Assembly (NCBI GenBank): GCA_015521825.1
Contig: WANL01000001.1
Span: forward strand, 1 to 48,448
Direction: 5' to 3'
DNA from: Candidatus Aenigmatarchaeota archaeon
GTDB taxonomy: Archaea; Aenigmatarchaeota; Aenigmatarchaeia; Aenigmatarchaeales; JAADFI01
Length of the DNA stretch: 48,448 bases
The notes beneath the pieces were generated by a model, which did not search any database, was not told where the DNA came from, and saw only the letters and a program-made list of their open reading frames with translations. This document shows positions 14,476-44,000 of the stretch, in pieces (the first letter of the stretch is position 1; each line of letters starts with the position of its first letter). A program made the translations under genes and the position numbers.

Positions 14476-15424
14476 GGAAGGTTCCCTGTCACCCTGGGGA
14501 ATTTACCCCGGGGCAAGACCCACCGAAGAGCTCGTCAAAAAGGGAATCGTGATTGTAGACAAACCCCAGGGCCCAACCTCCCACCAGGTGACCTCCTGGG
14601 TGAGGGAGATTCTCGGTCTCAAAAAGGCCGGTCACGCAGGAACCCTGGACCCGAGGGTCAGCGGAGTGCTGCCAGTGGCCCTGGGCGAAGCAACCAAAGC
14701 GATGCCGGCCCTCGCCTCGACGACCAAGGAGTACGTGGCCGTGATGCACATTCACAGGAAGGTGGAAAGGGAAAAAATCCTGGAAGCCTGCTCGTCTTTC
14801 CTCGGAACGATAGTGCAGGTTCCGCCGAGAAAATCAGCGGTGGCAAGGCGGCCGAGAAAAAGGAGGATACACGAACTGACAGTCCTGGAAGTGGAGGGGA
14901 GGGACGTGCTGATGAGGGTGGTCTGCGACGCCGGAGTGTACATAAGAAAGCTGTGCTCGGACATAGGGGAAAAAATGGGCGTGAAAGCGCACATGCAGGA
15001 ACTAAGGAGGACGCGGGCCGGAATATTTACCGAAAAGCAGAGCGTGACCCTTCAGGATCTTAAAGACGCCGTGGAATTCTGGAAGGAAGGGAATGAAAAG
15101 CCGATACGGACGGTAATACATCCCGTGGAGTTGGCGGTTGACAATATTAAGGCCGTAGTGATAAAGGACTCGGCCGTGGATGCCGTATGCAACGGGGCGC
15201 CGCTGGCAGTTACCGGGGTGGTGCTCGTCGAGGACGGGATATCGCCCGGAGACCTTGTGGGAATTCTGACGCTGAAGGGCGAACTCGTGGCCCTCGCGTC
15301 GGCGAAAATGAGTTCCGGGCAAATCCTGAAGGCGAGGAAAGGGATAGCCGCGGCGACCGATAGAGTTTTTATGCGCAGAGGCACATATCCTGATTGGAGG
15401 GCTCGTGGTGTAGCTAGCGGGTAG
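14450..15424 (+). CDS. cbf5: tRNA/rRNA pseudouridine synthase Cbf5 (H/ACA RNP catalytic subunit)
   Basis: TruB motif DKPQGPTSHQV..GHAGTLDP plus a C-terminal PUA domain. The last 26 nt of the ORF overlap the tRNA-Pro 5' end. Confidence 0.9.
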   Translation: MKKLLVRSEEGSLSPWGIYPGARPTEELVKKGIVIVDKPQGPTSHQVTSWVREILGLKKAGHAGTLDPRVSGVLPVALGEATKAMPALASTTKEYVAVMHIHRKVEREKILEACSSFLGTIVQVPPRKSAVARRPRKRRIHELTVLEVEGRDVLMRVVCDAGVYIRKLCSDIGEKMGVKAHMQELRRTRAGIFTEKQSVTLQDLKDAVEFWKEGNEKPIRTVIHPVELAVDNIKAVVIKDSAVDAVCNGAPLAVTGVVLVEDGISPGDLVGILTLKGELVALASAKMSSGQILKARKGIAAATDRVFMRRGTYPDWRARGVASG

Positions 15425-15497
15425 ACCCCGCCTGCAGTGGTCAGCATGAGAGCTTCGGGAGCTCTTGACCGCGGTTCAAATCCGCGCGAGCCCACCA
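15399..15497 (+). tRNA. tRNA-Pro (anticodon CGG) with about 23-nt insertion in the D-loop and encoded CCA
   Basis: Hand fold: GGGCTCG TG GTGT AGC[TAGCGGGTAGACCCCGCCTGCAG]TGGTCA GCAT G AGAGC TTCGGGA GCTCT TGAC CGCGG TTCAAAT CCGCG CGAGCCC A CCA. Acceptor, anticodon and T stems are perfect. The D stem uses two G-U pairs. Confidence 0.7.
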
Positions 15498-15721: not shown

Positions 15722-16194
15722 TAAAAAATATTCGGTAATCGTAGGGGGTGGTGGGAATAAAGGGCTTTGTCCAATGGAAGGCTAAAAACTCGGTAATCGA
15801 AGGAAAGAAAGTTATAGGAAGAACTGCTCAATGGAAGGCTGAAAATTCCACCATTAAAGCTAAAGTGGTGAGAATAGATGTCTCTGTCCAACCTAGGGCT
15901 AAAAACTCGGTAATCGAAGGGGAGGAAGTTATAGGAATAGATGCTCAAACCTGTGCTGAAGATTCCATCATTAAAGCTAAAGTGGTGAGAATAGGGGGGT
16001 TTGCTCAATGGTGTGCTGAAGATTCCATCATTGAAGCTGAAGTGGTGAGAATAGGGGACTCTGCTCAACGGTATGCTAAAAATTCCACCATTAAAGCTGA
16101 AGTGGTGAGAATAGGGGATGATGTACAATATGGTGCAGAAAATTGTTACATTCTTGTTGGGAAAGAGTTAATATGTAGAAGCATCGGTGACGGA
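15722..16194 (+). repeat. in-frame tandem repeat, 57/60-bp unit, about 7-8 copies of two alternating subtypes
   Basis: Units start at 15781, 15838, 15898, 15955, 16015, 16075 and 16135 (gctRaaaaYtc...). A degenerate copy lies at 15722-15780. The repeats encode 19/20-aa units AKNSVIEGxxVIGxxAQxx / AEDSIIKAKVVRIGxxAQxx. Confidence 0.85.
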
Positions 16195-17490
16195 AATGGT
16201 GGAGCAATTGTCGCAAAGACTATAACAACCGATGAGCCTCTGCGGAATCCTCAGCAGACTATTATAACGACTTCCGATCTACCGGGGGCGACGAAATGCA
16301 AAGAAGAAGACTTTAAAAAAATCCTGGAATTTTTTCAAACAGAGGAGCCGGAAGCCCTGAAACTGTTCAGAATAGAAAACGAAAAGATAGACTATGAAAG
16401 CTTTCTAAAAGAAATAGAAGACCTCGAAAAGCGCTTCAAAGAAGTAAATGAAGTGTACGAAAAACTGTTGGGATCAAGTACTGGCATTCACGAGTTGAAA
16501 ACAAACGAAGAAAAATATAAGTTTCTGTCTTCGATAAAAGATGAGGAAGAAATGATACGCTACCATCTGGATTTTCTCGAAAAGGAAGGATTGACCGATG
16601 ACTACCTGCTGTTCGAGAAAAGATACGTTATATCGCCGGAAGGTGTCATCGAAACCGGGGAAGAGGAAAACAGGGTAAACGAAGTTATTTACCGCCAAGG
16701 TATGGACATTATAAGGAAAATAAAACGCGGTGAAATACCGCTGAATCCGAGAACCCCGGAAATAGAAAGATTGAATGAGGAGCTGAAGAAAGTCAAGGAA
16801 AGGTTGAAAAGAACGAAAGGTAGGGAAGGTGGGGATGAGCTAAAGAAAATAAGAAGCAGAATAGAGGAACTGAAGAGGTCGGAAACCGAAAGAGTAAGAT
16901 CTTCGCTGAAAGATGAATGCACTCTGGATGAATTGAAAGAAGAACTCAACCAACTTTCCCAGCACTATTTGTCCGGTAAACCAAAGGAAATAGCGCGTTA
17001 CATATCGGACAGTATAAAAATAGAGGAAAAAGACGTATCTAACGTCATGAAAGTAAGCGTGTGGAACAAAACCGTAAAAGACATTCCAACCTATAGAGAA
17101 TACAGGTGCTGCGCGTTCCCCGGGTACTCTAACTCTACTACTTCAATTATAGAGTACATGAAAGAGCCGAGAGTGCAGCTCTTAAAAGTGGATATCGGTG
17201 ATAAAAACGCTATGGTAATAACCTTTGCCGACGGAAAAACTTTAATCGTCGACTCCGTAGAATCGAGGTACCACATTTTCGCGAGGAAGAACGTTTCTGA
17301 GGCGCTGATCAAAGCCATCAAGGATTACGCCAAAAGTTCCGGATTCGAAAGGGTAATAGTCTCAACCTCGGGCGGGAATTCCGCGCACAGAGAATTCCTC
17401 GAACACGTAAATGGGAAACAGGTTAAATATAAAGCATCACTACCGGAGTACTGTTATCTTGAATTCGGTGGAAGGGGAATAGAAATATGA
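15748..17490 (+). CDS. hypothetical 580-aa protein: N-terminal 20-aa beta-helix-like repeats, Lys/Glu-rich coiled-coil middle, unknown C-terminal globular domain
   Basis: Long ORF in an AT-rich patch with AAA/GAA/ATA-rich codon usage unlike its neighbours. GTG start directly after two in-frame stops. No family recognised by eye. Confidence 0.6.
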   Translation: MVGIKGFVQWKAKNSVIEGKKVIGRTAQWKAENSTIKAKVVRIDVSVQPRAKNSVIEGEEVIGIDAQTCAEDSIIKAKVVRIGGFAQWCAEDSIIEAEVVRIGDSAQRYAKNSTIKAEVVRIGDDVQYGAENCYILVGKELICRSIGDGNGGAIVAKTITTDEPLRNPQQTIITTSDLPGATKCKEEDFKKILEFFQTEEPEALKLFRIENEKIDYESFLKEIEDLEKRFKEVNEVYEKLLGSSTGIHELKTNEEKYKFLSSIKDEEEMIRYHLDFLEKEGLTDDYLLFEKRYVISPEGVIETGEEENRVNEVIYRQGMDIIRKIKRGEIPLNPRTPEIERLNEELKKVKERLKRTKGREGGDELKKIRSRIEELKRSETERVRSSLKDECTLDELKEELNQLSQHYLSGKPKEIARYISDSIKIEEKDVSNVMKVSVWNKTVKDIPTYREYRCCAFPGYSNSTTSIIEYMKEPRVQLLKVDIGDKNAMVITFADGKTLIVDSVESRYHIFARKNVSEALIKAIKDYAKSSGFERVIVSTSGGNSAHREFLEHVNGKQVKYKASLPEYCYLEFGGRGIEI

Positions 17491-21129: not shown

Positions 21130-21933
21130 TCAAATCCCGATTAGCATAGCCCTCCCTTCAACAGCCCTGAAAACAAGGTAACCGAGGAGGAGGAAAAGGA
21201 ACGTCAGGAAACCCAGGAAAGTTAGTTCCGGAAGAATCTCCTGAAGTCCGGAACCCTGTATTCCTATCTTTCTCAGCATCTCTATTGCCTGGGTGGTCGG
21301 CAAAGATTTGGAAACGGACCGCAGGGGTTCCGGAAATATTTCCACCGGGTACCAAACACCGGAAAGGATCGAAAGAATGTTTGAAAACATCCAGGAAAAG
21401 TCCGCGATACCCTCCCTCCACGCACCGAGCGCCGCTATGCACACACCCAGACCGTAAAAACAGAAAAAAGTAAGAGTAAAAACCAGAAATGCCAGGAGAA
21501 GACTCCCCTTAAACTCGAAATCGAAAAAATACAGGGCAACCGAAATGAGAAACACATTTGTAATCAGTATCTGCATCAGCGACGTTCCTGCTTTTGCGAG
21601 AAGGAAAGCCGTCCTTGAAGCCGGGGACAGGAAAAAGTACAGCGAAGTCCTCATGTACTTCTCCCTTACAAATACGTGGGAAACCGGGCCGAGATTCACC
21701 CCTATCACTTCCCATAACAGGGTTCCAGAGAGAATGAAAACAACGAAGGTCTCTCTCGTTAAATTCCCTATCCCTCCGAAGCCTTCTGCGAACACGGCAC
21801 TCCAGACGAAAACGAAGGCTATGAAGAAGGTTACGGAACCCATGAGATTCCAAAGCAATCTCTCCTTCCACCTGAGGAATTTCTTGATCTCGGCTGCCTG
21901 AAGCACGAAATAATCTTTTAAAAACCTTCTCAT
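21130..21933 (-). CDS. ABC-2 type transporter permease
   Basis: Six-TM protein of 267 aa. 4-nt overlap with the upstream ABC ATPase. Confidence 0.75.
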   Translation of the reverse strand: MRRFLKDYFVLQAAEIKKFLRWKERLLWNLMGSVTFFIAFVFVWSAVFAEGFGGIGNLTRETFVVFILSGTLLWEVIGVNLGPVSHVFVREKYMRTSLYFFLSPASRTAFLLAKAGTSLMQILITNVFLISVALYFFDFEFKGSLLLAFLVFTLTFFCFYGLGVCIAALGAWREGIADFSWMFSNILSILSGVWYPVEIFPEPLRSVSKSLPTTQAIEMLRKIGIQGSGLQEILPELTFLGFLTFLFLLLGYLVFRAVEGRAMLIGI

Positions 21934-22925
21934 ACCTCACCGCCTTTCAGATTTTTTCCGGTAAACTGGATGAACACGTCTTCAAGAGTCGGGAGGGCCG
22001 TCAGCACGTTCTCTATTTCGGTGAATTTTTTAACTTTCCCGATCAGCCTGTCTAAATTGCGAAGATCGTCGATCACAACCCTTAGCCTCCCGACCTCTTC
22101 CAGAAAATACGCGCTTTTTACAAACTCTTCCGACCTGAGCACCTCGACCAGCCTTGAAGAAAATTCCTTCACCCTTATTTCAACTATATCTTGCTTTTTA
22201 ATCATTCTTTTAAAATTCTCCGGAGAATCTATTTTGATTATCCTTCCACCGTCTATCATGGCAACTCTGTCGCACAAAATGTCCGCCTCTTCCATGTAAT
22301 GGGTCGATAAAAGAATCGTGGTCTTTTCATTTTTATTCAGATCCTTTAAAAACTCCCTCACCATTAAGGTTATGTTCGGATCCAGACCTATGGTGGGTTC
22401 GTCCAGGACGAGGAGATCCGGATCGTTTATCACCGCCTTTGCCAGAGAAAGGCGCATGATCTCTCCGGTAGAGTAGAGATCCGTGTAAGTGTCTGCTTTA
22501 TCTTTTAAACCGAATAGGTCCAGAAGCTTTTCGACTTTCTCCTCCAGGTCCCTCACACCGTAAAGCTTTCCGTAAACAATCAGGTTTTCCTTTCCTGTGA
22601 GTTCCCACCACAAATTCGCCCTGGCGAACACAGTGTTTATTTTTCCGGAAATTTTTGAAAAATTTTTGGTGACGTCCTCACCGAAGATACAAACCCTGCC
22701 TTTATCGGGGTGCAGGAGACCTGTAATTATTTTAAGGAGGGTCGTTTTTCCGGCCCCGTTCGGTCCGAGTAAACCGAATATCTCTCCGCGCCTCACTCTG
22801 AAACTTACATCGTTAAGAGCGGGTACGAGCTCCGGAAAGAAAAGTGACTTCATACCGTTTACGAATCCGACGGATCTCCTTCTGTAAAACTTGGAAACGT
22901 TGAAAACCTCGACTGCGTAAGCCAT
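21930..22925 (-). CDS. ABC transporter ATP-binding protein (DrrA/CcmA-like)
   Basis: Walker A GPNGAGKTT, signature YSTGEIMRL and Walker B LLVLDEPT, plus a C-terminal extension. Confidence 0.9.
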   Translation of the reverse strand: MAYAVEVFNVSKFYRRRSVGFVNGMKSLFFPELVPALNDVSFRVRRGEIFGLLGPNGAGKTTLLKIITGLLHPDKGRVCIFGEDVTKNFSKISGKINTVFARANLWWELTGKENLIVYGKLYGVRDLEEKVEKLLDLFGLKDKADTYTDLYSTGEIMRLSLAKAVINDPDLLVLDEPTIGLDPNITLMVREFLKDLNKNEKTTILLSTHYMEEADILCDRVAMIDGGRIIKIDSPENFKRMIKKQDIVEIRVKEFSSRLVEVLRSEEFVKSAYFLEEVGRLRVVIDDLRNLDRLIGKVKKFTEIENVLTALPTLEDVFIQFTGKNLKGGEV

Positions 22926-24357: not shown

Positions 24358-25941
24358 TCACCTCTCGGACAATCCGAACGCTTCCTGAGGTGTCAGCGCC
24401 CTGTCGAAGATCATAACATCGTCGATCACTGCGGTTCCTGGACTCGTTGCTCCGTCGAAATCACCGACAAACAGCCTCCAGTCTTTGCTCGAAGCCTGCG
24501 GATTTTTGTAGTCGTAGTAAATCTCGCCGCTCTGCTCAATACTTTCGAGCTCCCTTCCGTCGTAGTAAACCGATATATGGGTTCCGTTGTAACTCATCCC
24601 TATCAGGTGCCATTTCCCGTCGTAAAGTCCGGTCGCGTTGGCGTCGATGCATCTGATACCGTTCGTCACTGTGGAGAGGCAAGCACGGATTACATCCTCG
24701 CCCCTACTCTTTGTAACGGCGATGGCCCAGCTTCTCCAGCCGGCCCAGGTGGAATTCGTCGACCTTCTGTTTATTACCCACTTACCGAAGTCCCACGTTT
24801 TATTTATTCTCAGGAAAACGGAAATTTCCTTCTGCGGATCGTACTCCGAAAAGTTATCGACCTGAAGCCAGTCGTCATAGCCGTCGAAACTGATAGCGGT
24901 CCCGCTATACCCTTCGGTCCAGTCCGGGTAGTCCACATCACCATCTATGGTCAAGGGCTGGGCCTGAGTTGCGTGCTCGCAGATGAAATTGTACCAGTTC
25001 CAGCACCTCACATCGTACCAGGTACCTCTGTAGGAGAGGACCGCGCAGTGCTCGGTTCCACCGCCGTTGTTCGGTTCTCCCGTGTTCCAGTTCGTGTAGG
25101 AACTCGTTTCGTTTGGAAGCCACTTCCAGCACCCCGCCGGTTCGTTGGGGCAGCCGTCGGGCCAGCCGTTGTTGTTGCTCAGGTCGTTCCTGTCCTGGTA
25201 GTATCCTATCCACTTCCAGCCTCGACCGGCCAGATTCAGCAGAAACGAATTTTCATTCGAGGAAGAAACAACCGGAATGTAGCCTCCCCTTCTATCACAG
25301 AAGCTCTTCGCTTCTTTCCACCTGGGATATAGCTTCCTGGGATATAGCTTCGGATATAGCTTCAGGGTGTCCATGCACCCCATGTCGATGTACTCGTACC
25401 AGTGGGTGCCGTAGGTTCCGGTTCTGTACACACACTTCCGGTCCTTTAGAAGCAGGTCGATCCTGTTCACGCTGTCCTCGGTGACCAGGCCGCTGCCTTC
25501 GTCGAAACTCCAGAAGGCAATCGCGGATTCGTCGGGTTTTAATCTAACCGACTTCTGAGCAGTAACGGTTCCGGAAGATACCTTTACCGTGTGGGTTCCG
25601 GGAGAAAACCTCCACAGGTCGAGTATCTCCAGCTCTCCTGATTTCGAACTCTGAATGTCCTGCTTTAAGCTAAAGGAAACCGGTGCGCCGTCGACAAATA
25701 CAGAAATTGAATCGTTCGTTATCACGCCGAAGCCGCAGTTTCTGAGGTATATTCTGTTTCCGGAAACCGAATCTATTCTCATGCAGGTGGAGAGCTGCTT
25801 GGTAACCTGCTGAACTTGCTTCTTTCCGGTAGCGGTCAGGCCTCCGGTGGTGGAGGTCGTCCAGGTGTAAATCACGGAAACGAGAGCGATGGTTATGACG
25901 AAAATCATGATAACCGTCAGCACAGCGGACACGCCTTTCAT
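24358..25941 (-). CDS. type IV pilin-like protein fused to a C-type lectin domain (EPN type) and a LamG/Laminin_G_3 domain, 527 aa
   Basis: N-terminus MKGVSAVLTVIMIFVITIALV. CTLD region WKEAKSFCDRRGGYIPVV..WKWIGYYQD..WNTGEPNN..HCAVL..WYDVRC..FICEH. LamG region ISFDGYDDWLQV..GKWHLIGMSYNGTHISVYYDG..IDDVMIFDRALTPQEA. Confidence 0.8.
   Translation of the reverse strand: MKGVSAVLTVIMIFVITIALVSVIYTWTTSTTGGLTATGKKQVQQVTKQLSTCMRIDSVSGNRIYLRNCGFGVITNDSISVFVDGAPVSFSLKQDIQSSKSGELEILDLWRFSPGTHTVKVSSGTVTAQKSVRLKPDESAIAFWSFDEGSGLVTEDSVNRIDLLLKDRKCVYRTGTYGTHWYEYIDMGCMDTLKLYPKLYPRKLYPRWKEAKSFCDRRGGYIPVVSSSNENSFLLNLAGRGWKWIGYYQDRNDLSNNNGWPDGCPNEPAGCWKWLPNETSSYTNWNTGEPNNGGGTEHCAVLSYRGTWYDVRCWNWYNFICEHATQAQPLTIDGDVDYPDWTEGYSGTAISFDGYDDWLQVDNFSEYDPQKEISVFLRINKTWDFGKWVINRRSTNSTWAGWRSWAIAVTKSRGEDVIRACLSTVTNGIRCIDANATGLYDGKWHLIGMSYNGTHISVYYDGRELESIEQSGEIYYDYKNPQASSKDWRLFVGDFDGATSPGTAVIDDVMIFDRALTPQEAFGLSER
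25322..25364 (-). repeat. short tandem repeat (about 13-15-bp unit, 3 copies) encoding KLYP-KLYPR-KLYPR
   Basis: Plus strand reads gggatatagcttcct gggatatagcttc ggatatagcttca, just upstream of the CTLD. The paralog at 42378-44000 has a single LYPDW. Confidence 0.7.
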
Positions 25942-25962: not shown

Positions 25963-25972
25963 TAATATAAAG
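25963..25972 (-). promoter_or_regulatory. TATA box for the pilin-lectin gene
   Basis: The minus strand reads ctttatatta, 22-31 nt upstream of the ATG at 25941. This is consistent with a leaderless or very short-leader transcript. Confidence 0.4.
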
Positions 25973-26422: not shown

Positions 26423-27580
26423 ATGGTGCTCGAAACCGGGATAGAAAAGCTGGACAGGCTTCTCGCCGGGAAGCCGGAAAAGAACAGAAAATTTCTGTTT
26501 TTAACAACCCCCGGTATAGACGCACCGGCCTTCGCACAACAGGTCCTTTTCTCCGGGTTAGAAGCCGGGCTGTCAGGTGTCTACCTGGTCTTCAACAAAC
26601 CCCCGGAAGCCGTGAGGGAAACCATGAAAGAGTACCTCTGGGACGTATCTTCGTTCGAGGAATCAGGAAAGCTGACGTTCGTCGACGGGTTCTCTAAACT
26701 CGCGAATTCTGAAACCGGCGAAAAATTCGTGTGCAATCCGAAGAATCCTGACGAACTGATCAGTGCTACCATGGATGCCCTTAAGTCGGTTGGGGAAACG
26801 AAAATAGTGGTGGTTGACGAGATTTCCAACCTCGTCGATCTGATAGGGACCGAAGAAACCGAGCGCTTCATAGAGAAACTCAATTCCGAATCCTCTGTCC
26901 TGGGAATCTTCACCAACTGGCTCTACCCGGAAGAAACCGTGAACTCCGTTAAGGCGGTTTTCGATGAGATCGTCGAACTCAAAGCCGTGGAGGAAAAGGT
27001 CATCCTCAGAAACTACCTTTACATAGAAGGTAGGGCGGTGCCGTTTAAAATCGCGAAACCCGGCGGAATAAACATATACATTCCGAAAATCCTGGTCACC
27101 GGTCCGTACCACGCCGGAAAGAGCACCATAGTCAAAAACCTGAGCGACAGGTCGGTATCGGTGAACCGTCTCGGAACCACTATAGCCCTGGACCACGGCT
27201 ACGTTGAAATGGAAGGGTTCACCTGCGAACTCTTCGGTACCCCGGGCCAGGAAAGATTCGACTTCATCCTTTCCATACTCGCGAAGGACGTTTTCGGGGT
27301 CATCTTGGTCGTGGATTCAACGCTTCCGGAAAGCTTTCCGAGGGCCAAAAACATGCTTTCCAAGGTCAGAGGATACGGAATTCCCTTCGTGGTGATCGCA
27401 AACAAGCAGGATCTCCCGGAGGCCTTACCGCCCGAGGAGGTCAAAAGGCTCCTCGGAGTAGAGGCCCCGGTAATACCGGGTGTGGCGACAGAGGGCAAAG
27501 GTCTGAGGGAAGCCCTGAAGGAGCTGTTCAAACTCATACTGAAAGGTGGTGAGAATGGGAAAGAAGGAGGAAATAGATAA
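26423..27580 (+). CDS. fusion: degenerate KaiC/RecA-like domain (no Walker A) plus MglA/COG2229-type small GTPase
   Basis: N-terminal half TGIEKLDRLLAG..FLFLTTPGIDAPAF aligns with the neighbouring KaiC-like GIPGLDELLEGG..LLSGGPGTGKTTF but lacks GxxGxGKT. IVVVDEIS is kept. C-terminal half has G1 GPYHAGKST, G3 FGTPGQ and G4 NKQD. Confidence 0.75.
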   Translation: MVLETGIEKLDRLLAGKPEKNRKFLFLTTPGIDAPAFAQQVLFSGLEAGLSGVYLVFNKPPEAVRETMKEYLWDVSSFEESGKLTFVDGFSKLANSETGEKFVCNPKNPDELISATMDALKSVGETKIVVVDEISNLVDLIGTEETERFIEKLNSESSVLGIFTNWLYPEETVNSVKAVFDEIVELKAVEEKVILRNYLYIEGRAVPFKIAKPGGINIYIPKILVTGPYHAGKSTIVKNLSDRSVSVNRLGTTIALDHGYVEMEGFTCELFGTPGQERFDFILSILAKDVFGVILVVDSTLPESFPRAKNMLSKVRGYGIPFVVIANKQDLPEALPPEEVKRLLGVEAPVIPGVATEGKGLREALKELFKLILKGGENGKEGGNR

Positions 27581-27923
27581 CATACTGAAAGAGCTGAACC
27601 AGAGCAGTCCCAGCATAAAAGCCTCCCTGCTCGCCAGGGTTGATGGACTGGTGATACACAGCAGGTTGATGGAAGGGGTGGACGGAAGAAGTCTCGCGGC
27701 GATGACGGCGACAATAGTGGGAACGGCCCAGACGATCTCGAAGGAGCTGGAACAGGGGAAGCTGAACCAGGTGATCGTGGAGAGCGAGAACGGAAAGCTC
27801 GTCTCCATAAACGCCGGTAAGCTCGCGATCCTCAGCTGCCTGGTGGATCCGAACGCCAACCTCGGTTTCGTGCTTCTGGAGATGGGGAAGGCCGCGAAAA
27901 AGCTCGAGGAGATCCTGGAGTAA
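27555..27923 (+). CDS. Roadblock/LC7 (MglB-like) domain protein
   Basis: About 120 aa with ..ASLLARVDGLVIHS..AAMTATIVGTAQTISKEL..VIVESENGKLVSINAGK.. The ATG at 27555 follows GGTGGTGA. Confidence 0.75.
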   Translation: MGKKEEIDNILKELNQSSPSIKASLLARVDGLVIHSRLMEGVDGRSLAAMTATIVGTAQTISKELEQGKLNQVIVESENGKLVSINAGKLAILSCLVDPNANLGFVLLEMGKAAKKLEEILE

Positions 27924-27977
27924 AGTATTTAAAACGTTCGCCCCAAACTTTATGGTAGTAAAGTTAGGGGGGCGAAC

Positions 27978-28346
27978 ATGGTTTCGGAATCCGAACTCAG
28001 GGAGATTCTCGAAGAGTTCGTGAAATCCGCAGGAGTCATAGGCGCGGCCATAGTTTCGAACGAGGGTTTGATGATGTGCTCCCTGTTACCCGAAGACTCG
28101 GATCCCAACCTCGTGGCCGCTATGTCGGCTTCCCTGTTCGGAACTTCCAGGAAGGTCGTGGAGGAACTGAATCTGGGCCCGCTCCAGCAGGCCATAGTCG
28201 AGGCAAGGGAAGGCAAGCTGGTTGCCTGCTCCGCCGGTAAGTACGGAATTCTGGTCTCCCTTGTGCCGCACACGACCAACATCGGCCTTGTGATCCTGGA
28301 ACTCGGGAAAACCAGCGAGAGGATCAGAAGACTTCTGGAAGAGTAA
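27978..28346 (+). CDS. Roadblock/LC7 (MglB-like) domain protein
   Basis: 122 aa with ..GVIGAAIVSNEGLMMCS..AAMSASLFGTSRKVVEEL..AIVEAREGKLVACSAGK.. It is a paralog of the previous gene. Confidence 0.75.
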   Translation: MVSESELREILEEFVKSAGVIGAAIVSNEGLMMCSLLPEDSDPNLVAAMSASLFGTSRKVVEELNLGPLQQAIVEAREGKLVACSAGKYGILVSLVPHTTNIGLVILELGKTSERIRRLLEE

Positions 28347-29027
28347 TCAGATGAAGACCTCTTCCTTCGAAAAGACCTCGATTCCTCCGGGGCCGATTCT
28401 TACCGGGTGGAGTCTGGTGGAGTGGTTCGTGCCCCTCATCTTTAAGATTGAAAGCACCCTTGTGTACATGTTGCCTTCCATGACTCTCCTGAGAACGACG
28501 ATCCCGTCCGACACGAACTCCTCGACCCCGTAGGGTGAAACCGAGTCAGAGCCTTCCGGAATCTCGCAGGAAATTATAGAGGTGGCTCCTGTTTTCTTCA
28601 GTTGCTTCCCCAGTTCCACGAGACCCTTCCTTATCTCCAGGGGGTGCTCCAGGAACATTCCGAGAATCGTGGCCGGATCTATGACTATCCTCCTGGCGTT
28701 CAGCCGGAGAACGTTCTCCTCGATCACGGACCTGAGACTTGAAAAATCGTAAAGGTCCAGGCGGACCACGTCCATTTTTCCGGACTTTATCTGCTTTCCG
28801 ACCTTCCAGCCGAACCTTTCCGAGTTTCTCACGATCTGCTCCGGCTCCTCCTCGAGGGAGATGAAAACACCGGGCTCGCCGGAAAGTGATCCGTGGTAAA
28901 TGTAGGAAAGGCCGAAGGTTGTTTTCCCCGTGCCCGGACCTCCCGACAGGAGGATTAGGGAACCGGAAGGAAAGCCGCCTTCCAAAAGCTCGTCCAGGCC
29001 GGGAATCCCGGTGGAAACCCTTTCCAT
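28347..29027 (-). CDS. single-domain KaiC-like RecA-superfamily ATPase
   Basis: Contains GIPGLDELLEGGFPSGSLILLSGGPGTGKTTFGLSY, Walker B RIVIDP and the C-terminal ILKMRGTNHS..HPVRIGPGGIEV. Confidence 0.85.
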   Translation of the reverse strand: MERVSTGIPGLDELLEGGFPSGSLILLSGGPGTGKTTFGLSYIYHGSLSGEPGVFISLEEEPEQIVRNSERFGWKVGKQIKSGKMDVVRLDLYDFSSLRSVIEENVLRLNARRIVIDPATILGMFLEHPLEIRKGLVELGKQLKKTGATSIISCEIPEGSDSVSPYGVEEFVSDGIVVLRRVMEGNMYTRVLSILKMRGTNHSTRLHPVRIGPGGIEVFSKEEVFI

Positions 29028-29061
29028 AAAATTTTTATAAGACCGGGCGAATAAATAGTTT

Positions 29062-29409
29062 ATGATGAATCTTTTCGAGCTGATCCTGGTTTACTCTTCC
29101 ATAGGGTTTGCCGTGCTTTCCGTGGTTTTCATCTACCTCTCCCTTAATCTAACCAGGGAAGCGGTCAGAAAGAAAATGCTGGCCTCGATATTCAACCTCA
29201 GATTCAGGCAGTTCGAAAGGTTCTGGAAGTGGGTCTTCCTCCTTCCGTTTATAATAATAATCTCGAGGTCGGTCGAACTGATAAAGGAGATCCAGGGCCT
29301 CGAGTTCATAAACGGGGCCTACAGGATTTTCGACTTCATAATAATATTCATAATTTTCGTCCTCACGATATCCTACTACTTTATCCTGAAAACCTACATG
29401 AAGTCTTAA
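29062..29409 (+). CDS. small three-TM membrane protein, function unknown
   Basis: 115-aa hydrophobic ORF, AT-richer than its surroundings. Confidence 0.4.
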   Translation: MMNLFELILVYSSIGFAVLSVVFIYLSLNLTREAVRKKMLASIFNLRFRQFERFWKWVFLLPFIIIISRSVELIKEIQGLEFINGAYRIFDFIIIFIIFVLTISYYFILKTYMKS

Positions 29410-30203
29410 AGGAGCAGCGTGAGGAGAAGGGCCAGCGGGAACACCGGGCCGTACCTTACCCCGTCCCGAACTGTAACGAACTTCCTGACTCTTTTAAGTC
29501 TCGATACCTCTTCCTCGGTCAGACCTTTTATGTATTTCTTGAACACACCGGCTTCCGGAACGTCCTCACCTATCACATCGCCTTTCTTGAGCCTCGAGAC
29601 CGGTATCCGCCTGTAAAATCCGTAAGCCTCGACCGCCCTGGCGAAGCGAATCGCAAATGGCGACAGGGCCAGGAGGATCCCTACCGCGAGGAACAGCGGA
29701 CTTTCAAGGACGAAGGATGCGAGGCCGAAAGCGGTAAGAAACACCGAAGCTGTGAAGAGATCCTTTCCCCGATTCCTCCTGACCGAAGCTCCGAACTCCC
29801 TCCAGACCCTGGGGTTTTTTCTGGTAACCACAGCGGAATAGACCAGGGAGTAGATACCGCCGACCAGGAAAACATTCAGGAAAAATAGCGGTGTGAACAG
29901 CGGTGTCAGGAAGCCTACGGGCAGGAGAACGCCGATGGCGACGAGGAGCTCGCCGTCCCCGCCTCCCCACGAGCCCGTGTAGTACATCAGAAGACCGAAC
30001 GTCAGGAAAAGGAGTCCGGTACCGGCCGAAAGCAGGAAGGGAAGGGGATCGCCCAGGAGGAAGGACTCGTAAGCGTGGATCCCGAGGCCGAAAATTATCA
30101 TTCCTATCGCGAGGGCATCCAGCATGTCGCTCGTTTTCAGATCGTAAAGGGCGCAGGCCGTACTCCCACCGAGGGCAACGGCCAGCTTGACGGCTTCGAA
30201 CAT
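29406..30203 (-). CDS. A24-family archaeal prepilin/preflagellin peptidase (FlaK/PibD/EppA-like) with C-terminal extension
   Basis: Start re-picked to MFEAVKLAV (ATG at 30203). First catalytic Asp context is ALYDLKTSD and the second is WGGGDGELL (GxGD). Multi-TM. The extra C-terminal part is RIPVSRLKKGDVIGEDV.. Confidence 0.75.
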   Translation of the reverse strand: MFEAVKLAVALGGSTACALYDLKTSDMLDALAIGMIIFGLGIHAYESFLLGDPLPFLLSAGTGLLFLTFGLLMYYTGSWGGGDGELLVAIGVLLPVGFLTPLFTPLFFLNVFLVGGIYSLVYSAVVTRKNPRVWREFGASVRRNRGKDLFTASVFLTAFGLASFVLESPLFLAVGILLALSPFAIRFARAVEAYGFYRRIPVSRLKKGDVIGEDVPEAGVFKKYIKGLTEEEVSRLKRVRKFVTVRDGVRYGPVFPLALLLTLLL

Positions 30204-30207
30204 ATAA

Positions 30208-30948
30208 ATGAAAAGGATTCCTGTTAAATTTAAATATTTCCCGGAACCTCTAAATATTGTGCACGTGGCTGTGATTCTGGACGGAAACAGAAGATTCGCC
30301 AGAAGATTGATGCAAAAGCCGTGGAAGGGCCACGAGTGGGGGGCCAAAAAGGTCAGGTCGCTTCTCGAATGGGGAAGGGAAAAGGGTATCAAAAGGTTCA
30401 CGCTCTACTCCCTGTCGATAGAGAATATTAAAAAAAGACCGAAGAGGGAGCTCGACTACCTTTTCAGGCTTTTCGAAAGGGAATTCCGCGACATCCTGAA
30501 GCCGGACCACGAGGTTCACCGGCACCGGATAAGAATCAGGGTGATAGGAAGGAAGGAACTTCTCCCCGAAACCCTGAGGGACCTGATAGATCGGGTGGAG
30601 TCCGAGACCGAAAGTTACGACGGTTACGAGCTGGTACTCGCCATAGCCTACGGGGGTCAGCAGGAAATAACCGACGCCGCGAAAAAACTGGCTGAAGCCG
30701 TGAAAAACGGTTCGGTTGACCCGGAAAAAATCGACGAAGCCGAGTTCTCCAGGCATCTCTACGCCGCGGACTGTCCGGACATAATTATAAGAACCGGTGG
30801 GGAAAAGAGGCTGAGTAACTTTTTGCTGTGGCAGAGCGCCTACTCCGAGCTTTTCTTCGTGGACAAGATGTGGCCGGAATTCGAGAAGGAGGACTTCGAA
30901 CGAATCCTGGAGGAATTCAGGAAGAGGCAGAGGAGGTTCGGCGGCTGA
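30208..30948 (+). CDS. uppS: undecaprenyl (cis-prenyl) diphosphate synthase
   Basis: Contains HVAVILDGNRRFA, and later AYGGQQEI and RTGGEKRLSNFLLWQSAYSELFF. An alternative GTG start lies at 30259. Confidence 0.9.
   Translation: MKRIPVKFKYFPEPLNIVHVAVILDGNRRFARRLMQKPWKGHEWGAKKVRSLLEWGREKGIKRFTLYSLSIENIKKRPKRELDYLFRLFEREFRDILKPDHEVHRHRIRIRVIGRKELLPETLRDLIDRVESETESYDGYELVLAIAYGGQQEITDAAKKLAEAVKNGSVDPEKIDEAEFSRHLYAADCPDIIIRTGGEKRLSNFLLWQSAYSELFFVDKMWPEFEKEDFERILEEFRKRQRRFGG
30226..30239. promoter_or_regulatory. shared AT-rich TATA-like element between divergent peptidase and uppS genes
   Basis: aaatttaaatattt lies about 23-36 nt from the ATG at 30203 (minus) and about 20-33 nt from the in-frame GTG at 30259 (plus). 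This suggests uppS may really start at 30259. Confidence 0.35.
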
Positions 30949-33592: not shown

Positions 33593-34051
33593 TTAAGAGC
33601 AGGTTAGACCTTCTTCAACCGCACCCAGAGGACCGGCGATTCTCAGCGTCCTCGTGACCTTCGTGTCCCCCGGAGCAGTCTGATAGTTTATGTTCTTGGT
33701 CTCCCCGGTCTTGATTCCGACCGCTGAGAGGCTCGGTGTCGTCTTTGCGGTTATGTCCTCGCCGTCAAGGAACGCCCGAAGGTCTCCTGGTTCGATGTCA
33801 ACGGTTCCGATGTTCCTCAGTGTAAAGTTGATGGCATTGACGTTCGAAACGTTAGTGCACTTACTATTGATTATGATGACCTGCTTTCCCGCCGACTGCT
33901 GGAGCTGCTGTGCCTGCTGACTTCCTCCGGCCTGCATCCCTGTGACCATAGTGGTACTCCAGGCCCAGAGTATTCCCACCAGCGCCACCGCAATCACTAC
34001 GATCATTATCACTGCGATCACTGTCGATATACCTTTGCTGCTTCCCTTCAA
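33593..34051 (-). CDS. archaeal type IV pilin (Pilin_N-type class III signal peptide), 152 aa
   Basis: TTG start 4-5 nt after GAGGTGA. N-terminus is KGSSKGISTVIAVIMIVVIAVALVGIL, followed by a beta-sandwich-like region similar to the stalk of the pilin-lectin proteins. Confidence 0.7.
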   Translation of the reverse strand: MKGSSKGISTVIAVIMIVVIAVALVGILWAWSTTMVTGMQAGGSQQAQQLQQSAGKQVIIINSKCTNVSNVNAINFTLRNIGTVDIEPGDLRAFLDGEDITAKTTPSLSAVGIKTGETKNINYQTAPGDTKVTRTLRIAGPLGAVEEGLTCS

Positions 34052-36255: not shown

Positions 36256-37473
36256 CTATTTCTTTCTCCTTCCTCTCTTTAAAATCTTTGCCGGGTACTG
36301 AACCGGATTCTTTATCCCGCGGCAGACGTCGTCCGGTCTGCAGATTCCGAGGGAGCCGATGAAAAGTTCGTTGGAACACCCGGGCGGCAGAAGTCTCCTG
36401 CTCTGCCTGAGGTGCCACTTGAGCTGGGTTCTGATGGTGTTTTCCCTGAGAGGGGGTCTGTTTCTCGAGTTCCAGTTTTCGAGAGCCGACTCTATTTCCT
36501 TGGCAGACCAGCCGGAAGATCTTAAGAACGTAACGAGGGTGAAGATAGACCTCTTCCTTCCGTCCGAAAGCCCGGAGAGAATGTTCTTGATACACGGGGG
36601 GAACGCGCTTTCCGGCACCTTCACCCCGGCGGTGTGCCTGACCCCGGTCTTCGGTTTTTTCTTCGGCAGGAAGGCCGAGGCCTCGTCCACAAGGGTAGAG
36701 GCGTCCCCGGACCCGGAAAATTCGAGAGAGAGATCGGCGTTCTCGGGTCTGGCCGATTCCGGATCGAAGGAGAGCGGATCCCTGACCGGAACGGAAACGA
36801 GCAGAGTCTTGTGGTGTATTGTGTAGGGTGCCCTGAACAGGTGCCGGGAACCCCAGTTCGACTCTATTTCTACCGCCTCGAAGGCGGAGAATTTTTCAAA
36901 CCCTCCTATCGCTCTGGAAAGGGAAGCGTAGCCGCCTTCGAAGGAAGCGAGCCTCTCCAGGATTTCTTTATCCACCTTAGACTTAACGAATTCAACTATG
37001 GCCCTCGGAAGCTCTGGGTACAGAGACGCCGTGGGTCTGAGGTCCACGGACTCCGGAAAGCAGGAAAAAGGGATGAAAATGTGAAAGCCCCTTCTCCCGG
37101 AAAACTTGACCCCGGCCTTTATTCCGAAATCCGAGAGGAACTCGAGGACGGCGGAGGCCGCGATCTTGGAGTGCTCGAGACTGAACTTCGCGTCTATGTC
37201 GATGAGAAGGTCCCATCCGATCCTCAGTTCATCGAGTTCCTCGGCCTTCATCTCGCTTTTCAGCCTCAGCGGGTCCTTCCAGAGCTCGACTGAACAGTGG
37301 AAGCTGATCACCCCGGACTCCACGCGCTGAATCAGGTCCCCGGGGTATACAAGAGTGTCCGGCCTTTTTAAGAAGGAGCCGTCAGGAAGCGAGCACGCCA
37401 CCTCCCGGTTAGCCGCGAATTCCACTATCCTTCTCGCGACATCCTTCCGCGAATAGTAATCCTTCGGATCCAT
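36256..37473 (-). CDS. priS: DNA primase small subunit PriS fused to a PriL-CTD-like Fe-S helical domain
   Basis: Catalytic core WDLLIDIDAKF, SGRRGFHIFIP. The C-terminal 115 aa or so read FPPCIKNILSGL..RSIFTLVTFLRSSGWS..PPGCS..GICRPDDVCRGIKNPVQY, with four Cys. Confidence 0.8.
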   Translation of the reverse strand: MDPKDYYSRKDVARRIVEFAANREVACSLPDGSFLKRPDTLVYPGDLIQRVESGVISFHCSVELWKDPLRLKSEMKAEELDELRIGWDLLIDIDAKFSLEHSKIAASAVLEFLSDFGIKAGVKFSGRRGFHIFIPFSCFPESVDLRPTASLYPELPRAIVEFVKSKVDKEILERLASFEGGYASLSRAIGGFEKFSAFEAVEIESNWGSRHLFRAPYTIHHKTLLVSVPVRDPLSFDPESARPENADLSLEFSGSGDASTLVDEASAFLPKKKPKTGVRHTAGVKVPESAFPPCIKNILSGLSDGRKRSIFTLVTFLRSSGWSAKEIESALENWNSRNRPPLRENTIRTQLKWHLRQSRRLLPPGCSNELFIGSLGICRPDDVCRGIKNPVQYPAKILKRGRRKK

Positions 37474-41763: not shown

Positions 41764-42339
41764 TCACCTGACGGTTATCTTTATTACCGTGGTGTTCTCG
41801 CTGGACCTGTACCTCACGAGTTCAAGGCTCTTTCCTTTCATGGTGGCGTTGGGCGAGAACTGAATCATGAGGAATCCCTTCTGAACGAGGCTGTAGGTCT
41901 CCTCTCCGGTAGGTGTCCTGACCACCACATCGCCTGAAAGAAGGATCGCATCGGATTCCGGGTACATGAACCTCATCGAATACCTGGTTACCCCGTCGGC
42001 CTCACAGGATTCCCACAGTCTTTTACCGGAGTCGATAGGTCTCCATGGGTATCCGGAGCACACAGGGTACCTGGAAATTATGGTGTAGTAGATTCCGTCC
42101 GGTCTGACCTCGAGGTCCCCGCGGCTGACCGAAAAGACACACCTGTTTCCGGCTCCCGTCCTGGCCGTCTCCAGAATTTTCTGGGCGCATTTAGTGAACT
42201 CGGACTTCACCTTGTCTATCTCGGAAGCGTCGAAGCCGCCCTGAAGGGTGTCGTATGCCCAGGGAGCCGCCACAATCGCGAGGGAAACCAGAACGGAGAA
42301 AATGAGAACCGCCTGCAGGACCGTGGACTGTGCCTTCAT
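41764..42339 (-). CDS. class III signal-peptide (minor-pilin-like) protein, 191 aa
   Basis: N-terminus MKAQSTVLQAVLIFSVLVSLAIVAAP has the same MKAQS leader as the gene at 428-1108. It ends 4 nt before the argS start. Confidence 0.55.
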   Translation of the reverse strand: MKAQSTVLQAVLIFSVLVSLAIVAAPWAYDTLQGGFDASEIDKVKSEFTKCAQKILETARTGAGNRCVFSVSRGDLEVRPDGIYYTIISRYPVCSGYPWRPIDSGKRLWESCEADGVTRYSMRFMYPESDAILLSGDVVVRTPTGEETYSLVQKGFLMIQFSPNATMKGKSLELVRYRSSENTTVIKITVR

Positions 42340-42377: not shown

Positions 42378-44000
42378 TCACTCGAGCGAAACCATTTCCT
42401 TCGGATCGACAGCCTCGGAGAGTACCCTCACGAAGTCGAGAACCATCGGAACCTGACCGAACTGGAACTCCTTCACGTAATACGTGTTGCCGTTATCTAC
42501 GACCGGCTTCGAGTAGTTTATGGGCCCGGTCTGCGGAACCGAACCGATCTTATTACCGTCGAAGTAGAGGGAAATCTCGCTTCCGTCGTAGGTCAGGCCC
42601 AGGAGGTGGAACTTCCCGTCATTTAGGTTAATACTCCCGTCTGCGCACCTGTACTCCGAAGTGTAAACACAGGCCTTGGCCAGGGTTCCGTCACCGTAAA
42701 CCTCGATACCGTAAGCCGGGTTCAGGGAATGAGCCGCCCTGTAAGCGATTCTGACGCCCTCCCACCAGTATCCGGTCTTCTTGACCCGGACGAACAGGGA
42801 AACCCGGTTCGGGGGATCGTGATCCTCGGTTATAACGGTCTTTCCACCCGGCCCAGCCTCGGTTTTGAAAAACCCGGCCGAGACAATATCGTCGTAGCCG
42901 GAGAATTTCATTACCCCGTTTTCAATGACCGGGAGCCAGGGGTACCTCAGCTCGGGTCGATCCGGCTTCTGATCGTACTCGCAGATGAATCCCATACCGT
43001 AGGTGCAGTCGGCATCCGTGAAGTTATCGTTTTTCAATCCGCAGTTGGCCGGCGGAAAACCGACCCCGATCAACCGCTCAGCGGCCGAATCAACGTTATC
43101 GGGTTGTCCGCTTTCCCAGTTGAAGTAGGACGACGGTTCGACCGAAAGCCACTTCCAGTCTCCGGCGGGCTCGTTCGCCGAACCGCTCGGAACGGAATCG
43201 GAGTATGTGAGGTCGTTAGGATCCTGGTACAGACCGATCCAGAGACCGTTGGCCCAGTAGGGCATGGAACTGAGTTCGTCCCAGGAGGAGAACACGGCCA
43301 GGTAGCCTCCGTCGTTTTCGCAGAACTTCTTGGCCGAGACCCAGTCCGGATACAGGTTCGGATCTATTTCGTCCAGGCAGCCGTAGGGATACACGATGTA
43401 GTAGCTCGAACCGTAGTTCAGGGGGTCGAGACTCGAAGACCAGCAGGGTCCATCGACTGCGCGGGCGTCAATGCCGTTAACGGTGTCGTAAACGTAGTAG
43501 CGGTAACCGACCACATTTCCCTGAAAGTCGAGCTCGGGAACGGCCGTCCAGTTGTCGTCGAACTCGAAAAAGGCGACCGAGGAGTCCGAAGGCTTTATCT
43601 TCACGAATCTCTGGCTAACGAAGGATCCGGCCGAAATTGTCATGTCGTGATCCCCGACTCCGAAGTCGTAGAGGTTCGTCAGCTCGGCGTAACCGACCTG
43701 GTTGGGCGGAATGTCCCTGCTGAGAGAGTAATCCACGGGCTTTCCGTCTATGAAGATGTTAAGGGTTCCGTTTCTCACGACTCCGGGGCCGCAGTTTCTC
43801 AGATACACCCTGTTTTTCGCTACCTGGTCTATCCTTAGACAGTACATCTGCTCGGCCTGGGTAGTTATCCTCTCCCCGGATTCCCGCATGGTCTTTCCGG
43901 TAACTCCGAAGATCCAGTTTGCCAGAAGGTAGAGCAGGGCAATTGTTACGATTATCACAAGCGTGACGGCAACCGCGGACGAAATTCCCTTCGCGCTCAC
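42378..44000 (-). CDS. type IV pilin-like protein fused to a C-type lectin domain (QPD type) and a LamG/Laminin_G_3 domain, 540 aa
   Basis: GTG start. N-terminus SAKGISSAVAVTLVIIVTIALLYLL. CTLD region WVSAKKFCENDGGYLAVFSS..LWIGLYQD..WESGQPDN..FTDADC..FICEY. LamG region KFSGYDD..GKFHLLGLTYDGSEISLYFDG. Confidence 0.8.
   Translation of the reverse strand: MSAKGISSAVAVTLVIIVTIALLYLLANWIFGVTGKTMRESGERITTQAEQMYCLRIDQVAKNRVYLRNCGPGVVRNGTLNIFIDGKPVDYSLSRDIPPNQVGYAELTNLYDFGVGDHDMTISAGSFVSQRFVKIKPSDSSVAFFEFDDNWTAVPELDFQGNVVGYRYYVYDTVNGIDARAVDGPCWSSSLDPLNYGSSYYIVYPYGCLDEIDPNLYPDWVSAKKFCENDGGYLAVFSSWDELSSMPYWANGLWIGLYQDPNDLTYSDSVPSGSANEPAGDWKWLSVEPSSYFNWESGQPDNVDSAAERLIGVGFPPANCGLKNDNFTDADCTYGMGFICEYDQKPDRPELRYPWLPVIENGVMKFSGYDDIVSAGFFKTEAGPGGKTVITEDHDPPNRVSLFVRVKKTGYWWEGVRIAYRAAHSLNPAYGIEVYGDGTLAKACVYTSEYRCADGSINLNDGKFHLLGLTYDGSEISLYFDGNKIGSVPQTGPINYSKPVVDNGNTYYVKEFQFGQVPMVLDFVRVLSEAVDPKEMVSLE

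Follow-up and report, generated by a model that had tools for sequence, protein, structure and literature searches.

Two archaeal pilin-like proteins with C-type lectin-like domains: how far do their EPN and QPD motifs speak for sugar specificity?

Can the sugar specificity of an archaeal surface protein be read from three residues of its lectin domain? The question is raised by two genes in a 48,448-nucleotide stretch of archaeal DNA (contig WANL01000001.1, positions 1 to 48,448; hereafter the window), which we name A, an open reading frame (ORF) of 527 codons for amino acids at 24358-25941, and B, one of 540 at 42378-44000, both on the minus strand. Each encodes a pilin-like protein that carries a C-type lectin-like domain (CTLD), and in the long loop of this domain A reads EPN and B reads QPD. 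A sequence-only reading of the locus had proposed from this difference that the two are pilus lectins with different sugar specificities. Our analysis indicates that the EPN/QPD motifs alone cannot reveal the ligands of A and B. The explanation to which we lean, and which we consider somewhat probable, is that A and B belong to the archaeal type IV pilin-like surface proteins, are built from modules, and use their combined LamG and CTLD heads as adhesins for glycans of a host or a surface.

24358..25941, minus strand: gene A, pilin-like lectin (ORF; Pfam Lectin_C 2.1e-13 and Laminin_G_3 1.5e-8; AlphaFold2 model with a predicted local distance difference test score, pLDDT, of 86.3 and a predicted TM-score, pTM, of 0.79)
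42378..44000, minus strand: gene B, paralogue of A (ORF; Pfam Lectin_C 8.8e-6 and Laminin_G_3 8.5e-9; AlphaFold2 pLDDT 79.6)

Domain architecture and divergence of the paralogues

A and B are paralogous end to end, with 32% identity (E 6e-89). The common architecture previously described for the two ORFs is confirmed, in that both are present and each contains Lectin_C and Laminin_G_3. Lectin_C (PF00059) covers residues 208-322 of A at 51.4 bits and residues 220-341 of B at 26.9 bits (curated cut-off 22.6), and Laminin_G_3 passes Pfam's own cut-off in both proteins. The disulfide framework, with pairing inferred from cysteine positions, consists of 170-189, 215-321 and 299-313 in A, together with an extra pair (264-271) in an enlarged loop, and of 186/208, 227/340 and 320/332 in B, which lacks the extra long-loop pair of A. 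The core motif reads WIGY in A and WIGL in B. The Lectin_C scores and this cysteine framework bear out, for A and B alike, the earlier claim of a true CTLD on a pilin-like protein. For A, phmmer comparison with PDB sequences adds matches to CL-P1 (E 2e-12) and MBP-C (E 7e-11), and the family profile A1 matches CL-P1 at 8e-16 along with many other carbohydrate-recognition domains (CRDs). The AlphaFold2 model of A places its site region (residues 281-320) at pLDDT 89-96, and Foldseek aligns its CTLD to the CRDs of human SRCL, MGL, CD23, ASGR1 and langerin with TM(target) 0.77-0.85.

The segments of A are as follows, where a slash marks the cleavage point of the signal.

25846..25941, minus strand: residues 1-32, class III (prepilin-type) signal MKG/VS and hydrophobic helix (sequence; modelled helix 6-32)
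25531..25791, minus strand: residues 51-137, Ig-like beta-sandwich stalk with Cys53-Cys69 (all-beta, pLDDT 87-97)
25438..25530, minus strand: residues 138-168, the 'AFWSFDEGSG...' strands, which adjoin the LamG body in CTLD-less relatives (alignment A2; strands 140-144, 153-155 and 162-167)
24967..25437, minus strand: residues 169-325, long-form CTLD (Pfam; PDB phmmer; Foldseek; cysteine positions)
25321..25363, minus strand: tandem repeat, three copies of KLYP(R), in the loop before helix 1 of the CTLD (Tandem Repeats Finder; period 12-15 nt)
24361..24966, minus strand: residues 326-527, LamG or concanavalin-A-like jelly roll (Laminin_G_3; Foldseek matches to clostridial neurotoxin HCN and PAPP-A LamG domains)

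The domains of the sequence-only reading (stalk, CTLD, LamG) are thus all present, but their simple serial order does not hold. A CTLD-less type of about 350 residues, which shares the N-terminal helix, the Ig-like domain and LamG, makes up about 100 of the best 150 library matches. In these homologues the segment 'WSFDEGSG..D..GN' runs straight into 'P.W..G.FG.AL.FDG.DD' (alignment A2), and A and B carry about 160 CTLD residues between those two segments of the LamG scaffold. Since the flanks are contiguous in the CTLD-less relatives, the CTLD is an insertion into an older scaffold of pilin, stalk and LamG. Structural nesting of the CTLD inside LamG would follow from the alignment, and we state it as an inference because the Pfam Laminin_G_3 model begins beyond the insertion point.

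Two further observations concern the scaffold. The KLYP(R) repeat of A, in a region where model pLDDT falls to 61-71, is a single copy (9 residues fewer) in the orthologues P0001, P0177, P0178 and P0180. P0004 and P0006, both proteins from metagenomes in the European Nucleotide Archive (ENA), are nearly identical over their N-terminal ~145 residues, and P0004 carries an insert of ~190 residues, unmatched in Pfam, precisely where A and B have their CTLD. The insertion point may accordingly be a hot spot for the swapping of head modules, as this pair suggests.

The statement that the paralogues differ exactly at the tripeptide is wrong, because the two CTLDs match at just 62 of 157 residues (39%), which leaves ~95 positions that differ, and B carries an 11-residue insertion besides. 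The contrast of EPN and QPD is real, but it is one feature of an extensive divergence of long standing between the paralogues and no clean specificity switch. Both genes are intact in near-identical strains. Comparison of A with its counterpart in a near-identical strain gives a ratio of nonsynonymous to synonymous polymorphism (pN/pS) of 0.24, in the purifying range, and comparison of B with a 98%-identical relative gives 0.66 (9 nonsynonymous and 4 synonymous differences), with no sign of strong constraint; each value rests on 13 differences, a small count that makes it indicative only.

Calcium site 2 in A, B and their relatives

Inspection of the site regions, NWNTGEPNNGGGTEHCAVLSYRGTWYDVRC in A and NWESGQPDNVDSAAERLIGVGFPPANCGLKNDNFTDADC in B, shows that the strings quoted by the sequence-only reading are exact: WNTGEPNN...WYDVRC in A and WESGQPDN...FTDADC in B. 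In an ungapped phmmer alignment of A (YTNWNTGEPNNGGGTEHCAVLSYRGTWYDVRC) to MBP-C, EPN...E...WYD falls on EPN...E...WND, and the QPD of B is aligned on the QPD of CL-P1. These alignments to reference CRDs place both tripeptides at Ca2+ site 2, as had been supposed, and show that they are not chance strings. The ligands of this site in MBP-A are Glu185, Asn187, Glu193, Asn205 and Asp206, of which Asn205 is a ligand of both Ca2+ and sugar. Their counterparts are listed below.

25069..25077, minus strand: EPN of A, residues 289-291, equivalent to MBP-A Glu185-Pro186-Asn187 (alignment to MBP-C)
25051..25053, minus strand: Glu297 of A (in TEHC), equivalent to MBP-A Glu193 (alignment)
25012..25020, minus strand: WYD of A, residues 308-310, a WND in which the Ca2+/sugar-ligating Asn has become Tyr (alignment)
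43098..43106, minus strand: QPD of B, residues 299-301 (alignment to CL-P1; region pLDDT 46-54)
43053..43085, minus strand: 11-residue insertion of B, residues ~306-316, between QPDN and Cys320, with Ala318 as the Glu193 equivalent (alignments)
43014..43022, minus strand: FTD of B, residues 327-329, a WND with Trp replaced by Phe and Asn by Thr (alignment)
Site 2 of A at 185/187/193/205/206: Glu, Asn, Glu, Tyr, Asp
Site 2 of B at 185/187/193/205/206: Gln, Asp, Ala, Thr, Asp

Ca2+-ligating residues, on which the proposed specificities depend, are therefore missing in part: four of the five are kept in A and three of the five in B. The Asn of WND is lost in A and B alike, and only the Asp206 equivalent of the motif is retained. 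The Glu193 equivalent, two residues before the cysteine C2, is present in A and replaced by Ala in B, although an upstream Glu within the low-confidence 11-residue insert (residues 303-315 of the model are below pLDDT 50) might substitute for it. The rule by which EPN marks mannose-type and QPD galactose-type ligands is established for CRDs with a complete site, and for that reason the mannose/galactose reading is not safely transferable to A or B, least of all to B.

Loss of the Asn is not necessarily fatal to binding. In a set of 193 CTLD motifs, taken from unrelated proteins with top scores and retaining [EQ]P[ND] and the Glu, 79% have Asn at position 205 and 7% have Tyr or Phe there. Binding of mannose and galactose alike is reported for a fish DC-SIGN that reads EPN/WYD (PMC11084180), a report that likewise weakens any direct inference of specificity from the three residues. 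The WYD state is kept in the orthologues of A (P0001, P0177, P0178, P0180). Judged by its aligned residues, A has a modified but nearly canonical site and is plausibly a lectin that depends on Ca2+. The putative sugar/Ca2+ site of B is doubtful.

To place these sites in their family, we used an exhaustive HMMER search over 1.84 billion representatives, which made the family visible where word-indexed homology searches gave few matches (20, 3 and 13). Full-length matches to A comprise only five clusters among these representatives (A's own, P0002, P0023, P0003 and that of B), and the same peculiar lectin domain is found in a few other archaeal pilin-like proteins (P0005, P0042, P0052, P0054, P0120 and P0135), which makes the family very rare. 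The relatives that carry a name are one Micrarchaeota and one Woesearchaeota metagenome-assembled genome. Related assemblies are GCA_015520075.1, GCA_054017115.1 and GCA_054031795.1. Site-2 states across the family, given as positions 185-187 / 193 / 204-206, are as follows.

A and its orthologues: EPN / E / WYD
P0182/P0002 (closest orthologue lineage, ~53% identical to A): EPN / E / WND
P0052: EPN / E / WND
P0023: QPD / E / WFD
P0005: QPD / Q / WDD
B: QPD / A / FTD
P0042: EPD / Y / HYD
P0054: YPN / E / YND
P0003: EPS / K / none

A survey of relatives had been advised, and in it the two motifs indeed alternate across this small family: EPN is found in A, P0182/P0002, P0052 and P0135, and QPD in B, P0023 and P0005. 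A 'legal' acid/amide pair (EPN or QPD) is present in 7 of the 10 family lineages. The ancestral site was complete, because P0182/P0002, P0052 and the nearest bacterial CTLDs all show EPN, Glu and WND, and site 2 has been eroded repeatedly across the family. A neighbour-joining tree recovers an A-type clade (A, P0177, P0182), all EPN, with 100% bootstrap and groups B, P0023 and P0003 weakly (32-43% bootstrap); the QPD of P0005 arose separately. In P0005 (loci L004/L007, Woesearchaeota) Glu193 has become Gln and Asn205 has become Asp, such that acid and amide ligands are exchanged, and this compensating change argues for selection on the metal site. The same combination of Gln193 and Asp205 (WDD) occurs in the bacterial protein P0034. 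P0005 also lacks the C2-C3 cysteine pair.

The nearest CTLDs outside the family belong to bacterial PEP-CTERM/IPTL-CTERM proteins (P0024-P0035; Verrucomicrobiae locus L006). These share the loop 'WIGLYQD...EP.GGWKW' and have the canonical EPN and WND, which points to a bacterial origin of the domain; the archaeal CTLD was likely acquired from bacteria by gene transfer, as far as these sequences can tell. As a matter of record, an EPN/WND orthologue at locus L001 (10001-11508, GCA_054017115.1) is split into gene calls of 392 and 123 residues by a frameshift or an assembly error, and the split call has no pilin N-terminus; the intact 539-residue version is P0182, from an ENA metagenome.

How, then, should the CTLDs of A and B be read? 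One alternative to adhesin heads is that these domains, or at least that of B, are not sugar lectins and instead form a Ca2+-free scaffold for protein or other ligands, or a decoration of the head, with LamG as the real binder. Most members of the CTLD superfamily do act as scaffolds for protein or other ligands without Ca2+. In the present family, the form made of pilin, stalk and LamG without a CTLD is by far the commoner, site 2 is eroded in P0003, P0042, P0054 and B, the site loop of B is poorly modelled, and the different insert of P0004 implies that this point of the scaffold tolerates arbitrary modules. However, complete canonical sites are found in P0182/P0002, P0052 and the bacterial relatives, the four ligands of A are strictly conserved among its orthologues, and the compensated pair in P0005 again speaks for selection on the Ca2+ site. 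On these grounds we regard the alternative as rather unlikely, and more readily entertained for B than for A.

The opposite alternative takes the tripeptide at face value, with A (EPN) specific for mannose/N-acetylglucosamine (GlcNAc)-type and B (QPD) for galactose-type ligands through a canonical Ca2+ site 2. What stands of the proposal of two lectins with different specificities is that EPN and QPD occupy homologous site-2 positions and alternate in the family. The coordinated change from E..N to Q..D is seen in three lineages (B, P0023, P0005), with uncoordinated intermediates rarer; the firmly supported A-type clade is uniformly EPN while B and P0023 are QPD, and near-identical strains retain both paralogues. 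What does not stand is that the tripeptide decides. Both sites are incomplete, with the WND Asn gone from each; B has no Glu193 equivalent and bears its low-confidence insert directly beside QPD; the domains differ at far more than three positions; the animal rule holds for complete sites only, and the EPN/WYD example cited above is reported to bind both sugar types; and B shows no sign of strong constraint against its close relative. Specificity set by the tripeptide is thus unlikely. Bolder still is the idea that the animal EPN/QPD code operates in archaea, such that two pilus lectins have distinct Ca2+-dependent specificities for distinct host glycans and the rapid turnover of site 2 (EPN, QPD, EPD, YPN, EPS; WND, WYD, WFD, WDD) records host-range evolution, and this we hold to be quite improbable.

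Pilin module, genomic setting and proposed function

The N-termini of A and B follow the class III consensus of FlaFind-type rules, in which a short, charged leader ends in [KR]-[GA] and is followed by a hydrophobic helix of ~20 residues. The leaders read MKG/VSAVLTVIMIFVITIALVSVIY in A and MSAKG/ISSAVAVTLVIIVTIALLYLL in B, with modelled helices at 6-32 and 8-33, and all four pilin-like genes of the window can be read as having a [KR]-[GA] cleavage site ahead of a hydrophobic helix. Residues 1-122 of A are homologous to a 152-residue headless pilin encoded in the window (30% identity, E 2e-16); the N-terminal helix and stalk therefore amount to one complete pilin module. The features relevant to this setting are listed here.

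25963..25971, minus strand: TATA-like TTTATATTA, centred ~26 nt upstream of the ATG of A (pattern match only)
29406..30401, minus strand: type IV prepilin/preflagellin peptidase, family A24 (Peptidase_A24 34.5 bits, cut-off 26.5)
33593..34051, minus strand: 152-residue headless pilin with KG/IS signal, helix and Ig-like domain (homology to A residues 1-122)
41764..42339, minus strand: 191-residue pilin-like protein with MKA/QS signal, immediately downstream of B (sequence; same order in L011)

Gene A is monocistronic: downstream, a GNAT gene converges on it, and upstream, 480 nt separate it from a divergently oriented gene. The earlier statement that it stands alone with its own TATA box agrees with this, the box at 25963-25971 being a pattern match, and the spacing of the TATA-like element suggests a leaderless mRNA for A. 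The divergent cluster at 26423-30401 encodes a fusion of KaiC with a small GTPase (Arf/Ras-like), two Roadblock/LC7 (MglB-like) proteins, a KaiC-like ATPase, a 115-residue membrane ORF and the A24 peptidase, and its gene order is the same in the related strains L009 and L010. It could represent a GTPase/Roadblock switch that regulates surface filaments. The peptidase itself has a weak NCBIfam match to FlaK and an orthologue in L009, with synteny in L009/L010. The coordinates 29406-30401 are those of the longest ORF; the orthologue has 265 residues, so the peptidase probably starts near 30203. The headless pilin has weak NCBIfam matches to BasA and UpsA and is a candidate for the major subunit of a filament that A and B might join.

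B lies in a tight co-directional array of a 566-residue Cys-rich protein, a 724-residue Cys-rich protein, B, the 191-residue pilin-like protein and arginyl-tRNA synthetase, and this order is kept in the 98%-identical strain (L011). The two Cys-rich secreted proteins (44034-47905) are directly upstream of B, with a start/stop overlap of 4 nt; they have no Pfam match, only a weak match to an 'acidic double-disulfide repeat', and may join B in a common surface structure. The 191-residue protein has no significant family match in Pfam or NCBIfam.

Several observations weigh against A and B as glycan-binding pilins. For the pilin part, Pfam Pilin_N is sub-threshold for A (19.6 versus 25.2 bits) and has no match in B, NCBIfam UpsA is sub-threshold for both (28.3 bits for A and 16.2 for B, versus 130), and the 48-kb window yielded neither an assembly ATPase for pili nor a platform gene. 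For the head, the loss of Asn205 in both proteins could abolish canonical binding. No CTLD appears among the best 50 Foldseek matches of B; because all of these are of LamG type, its CTLD fold rests on sequence profiles, and its long loop is modelled at pLDDT 46-71.

The pilin-related points invite the alternative that A and B are not pilus subunits, that the class III N-terminus is a membrane anchor or part of a bindosome-like assembly of the kind formed by Sulfolobus sugar-binding proteins, and that the heads either serve uptake by capturing free sugars or polymers, or hold the cell directly in place. Beyond the missing assembly genes near A or B, genes of the A, B, P0023, P0003 and P0005 types sit alone among housekeeping genes, the headless pilin matches BasA as well as UpsA, and the Nanobdella analogue of A and B is described simply as having an N-terminal transmembrane helix. 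Class III signals are also reported for Sulfolobus sugar-binding proteins (PMC3047682). Against this, the first 122 residues of A make up a whole pilin module, to which a short pilin of the same genome is homologous; the A24 peptidase, the KaiC-type ATPases and the small GTPase/Roadblock pair adjoin A with conserved synteny; and neither A nor B is accompanied by an ABC sugar transporter, the ABC-2 pair at 21130-22925 being of exporter type. We therefore give this alternative little credence.

Under the preferred explanation of A and B as modular pilin-like adhesins, the class III signal (MKG/VS in A, MSAKG/IS in B) would be cleaved by the A24 prepilin peptidase, whose gene lies at a distance of 3.5 kb. 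The N-terminal helix and Ig-like domain would then act as the pilin module, which either enters a pilus or anchors the protein in the membrane; within a pilus, A and B would probably be minor or tip subunits beside the headless pilin. The head combines a LamG jelly roll with a bacterial-type long-form CTLD, both domains being evident and their nesting suggested by alignment. It may bind glycans of a partner cell or surface, most likely a glycosylated host envelope, since the named relatives are DPANN archaea. The site of A (EPN, Glu297, Asp310, with Tyr309 in place of Asn) would probably still bind Ca2+ and mannose/GlcNAc/glucose-type sugars with altered geometry. The degenerate site of B (QPD, Ala318, Thr328, Asp329 and a floppy insert) may take another ligand or bind without Ca2+, or LamG may do the binding.

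The remainder of the window contains archaeal housekeeping genes. One 405-residue ORF (36256-37473) is a PriS-PriL fusion, in which the small-subunit domain of DNA primase is joined to a large-subunit/PriCT domain. Such a fused primase is typical of DPANN archaea, and together with the named relatives it indicates that the source of the window is probably a DPANN-type archaeon. Next to tRNA-Pro (15424-15497), a 580-residue ORF without Pfam match (15748-17490) has N-terminal repeats of ~20 residues (direct repeats of 60 and 117 nt), beyond which it is rich in Glu and Lys and probably forms a coiled coil; GC here is 0.45, the minimum of the window, and AT skew is the strongest of the window. A 552-residue ORF (3420-5078) fuses asparagine-synthase-type and HhH-GPD base-excision glycosylase domains, an unusual combination.

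Comparison with known systems

For host recognition and attachment in DPANN archaea, the candidates so far are ConA/LamG-like (ConA, concanavalin A), lectin-like surface proteins predicted from structure. The family of A and B adds a second lectin module, whose fold is well understood and whose binding site can be read. A canonical PF00059 domain, probably bacterial in origin, has been grafted into an archaeal pilin, which extends the modular pilins known in bacteria to archaea. Should the paralogues bind different sugars, they would be the first archaeal host-recognition pair with specificities readable from sequence; should they not, A and B are a warning that EPN/QPD has to be read together with the remaining residues of the site. 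In our literature search, no archaeal pilin was described as carrying a canonical PF00059 domain with EPN/QPD, and the C-type-lectin-fold proteins that it found discussed for DPANN are targets of diversity-generating retroelements (DGRs) only; a search of PMC12892359, on Micrarchaeota, turned up neither pili nor lectins.

C-type-lectin-fold proteins diversified by DGRs are known from DPANN archaea. A and B as such variable proteins can be rejected, with no direct repeat resembling a template/variable repeat pair in the window and no reverse transcriptase among the scanned ORFs; their CTLD is of the PF00059 type, not the DGR CLec type.

Animal C-type lectin CRDs (MBP-A/MBP-C, CL-P1/SRCL, ASGPR, MGL, langerin, CD23) share with A and B the Pfam family, the six long-form cysteines and the WIG motif, as well as EPN/QPD, Glu and Asp at homologous site-2 positions (the Glu in A, not in B); with A they also share the fold (TM 0.77-0.85). 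They differ in that A has Tyr and B has Thr for the Asn of WND, and in that B lacks the site-2 Glu. The archaeal domains are further set apart by an additional loop of 16 residues ('QDxxDLxxNNGxPxGCxNEPxGC'), which in A holds a disulfide of its own, and by their insertion into a LamG module on an archaeal pilin. The bacterial PEP-CTERM/IPTL-CTERM Lectin_C proteins resemble A and B in their 'GHxY' start and their extended loop 'WIGLYQD..D...EP.GGWKW', and their site consists of EPN, Glu and WND. In contrast to A and B, they are small (~170-250 residues), stand-alone, and secreted or anchored, with no pilin module and no LamG; canonical cysteine pairs are often missing.

Among pili, those of the Sulfolobus Ups system recognise species-specific S-layer N-glycans of the partner, and mannose inhibits aggregation (PMC7064770). 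UpsA is thus an archaeal type IV pilin for glycan recognition, to which the N-terminus of A gives a weak match (28 versus 130 bits). Unlike A and B, it has ~140 residues and binds through a variable surface patch, with no dedicated lectin domain. Streptococcus sanguinis PilC is a type IV pilin with a ConA-like lectin module and PilB one with a vWA module. Both share with A and B the class III signal, the pilin module and a bulky C-terminal adhesion module, and as minor subunits they are proposed or shown to be adhesive. In contrast to A and B they are bacterial; their sequences are unrelated, only one module is grafted on, and a CTLD is absent.

A and B also resemble, in overall plan, DPANN proteins composed of pilin, Ig stalk and LamG/ConA-like head (Nanobdella aerobiophila MJ1_0179; Nanohalobium LC1Nh_0399-0401; P0006, P0049, P0057). 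MJ1_0179 is described as an N-terminal helix, Ig fold and ConA-like lectin domain, with a proposed role in host recognition. These proteins have the same helix, Ig-like domain and LamG head, are proposed as lectins for host recognition, and are homologous to A on both sides of the CTLD. They have no C-type lectin domain, whereas A and B carry one as a second, inserted lectin module with an EPN/QPD site.

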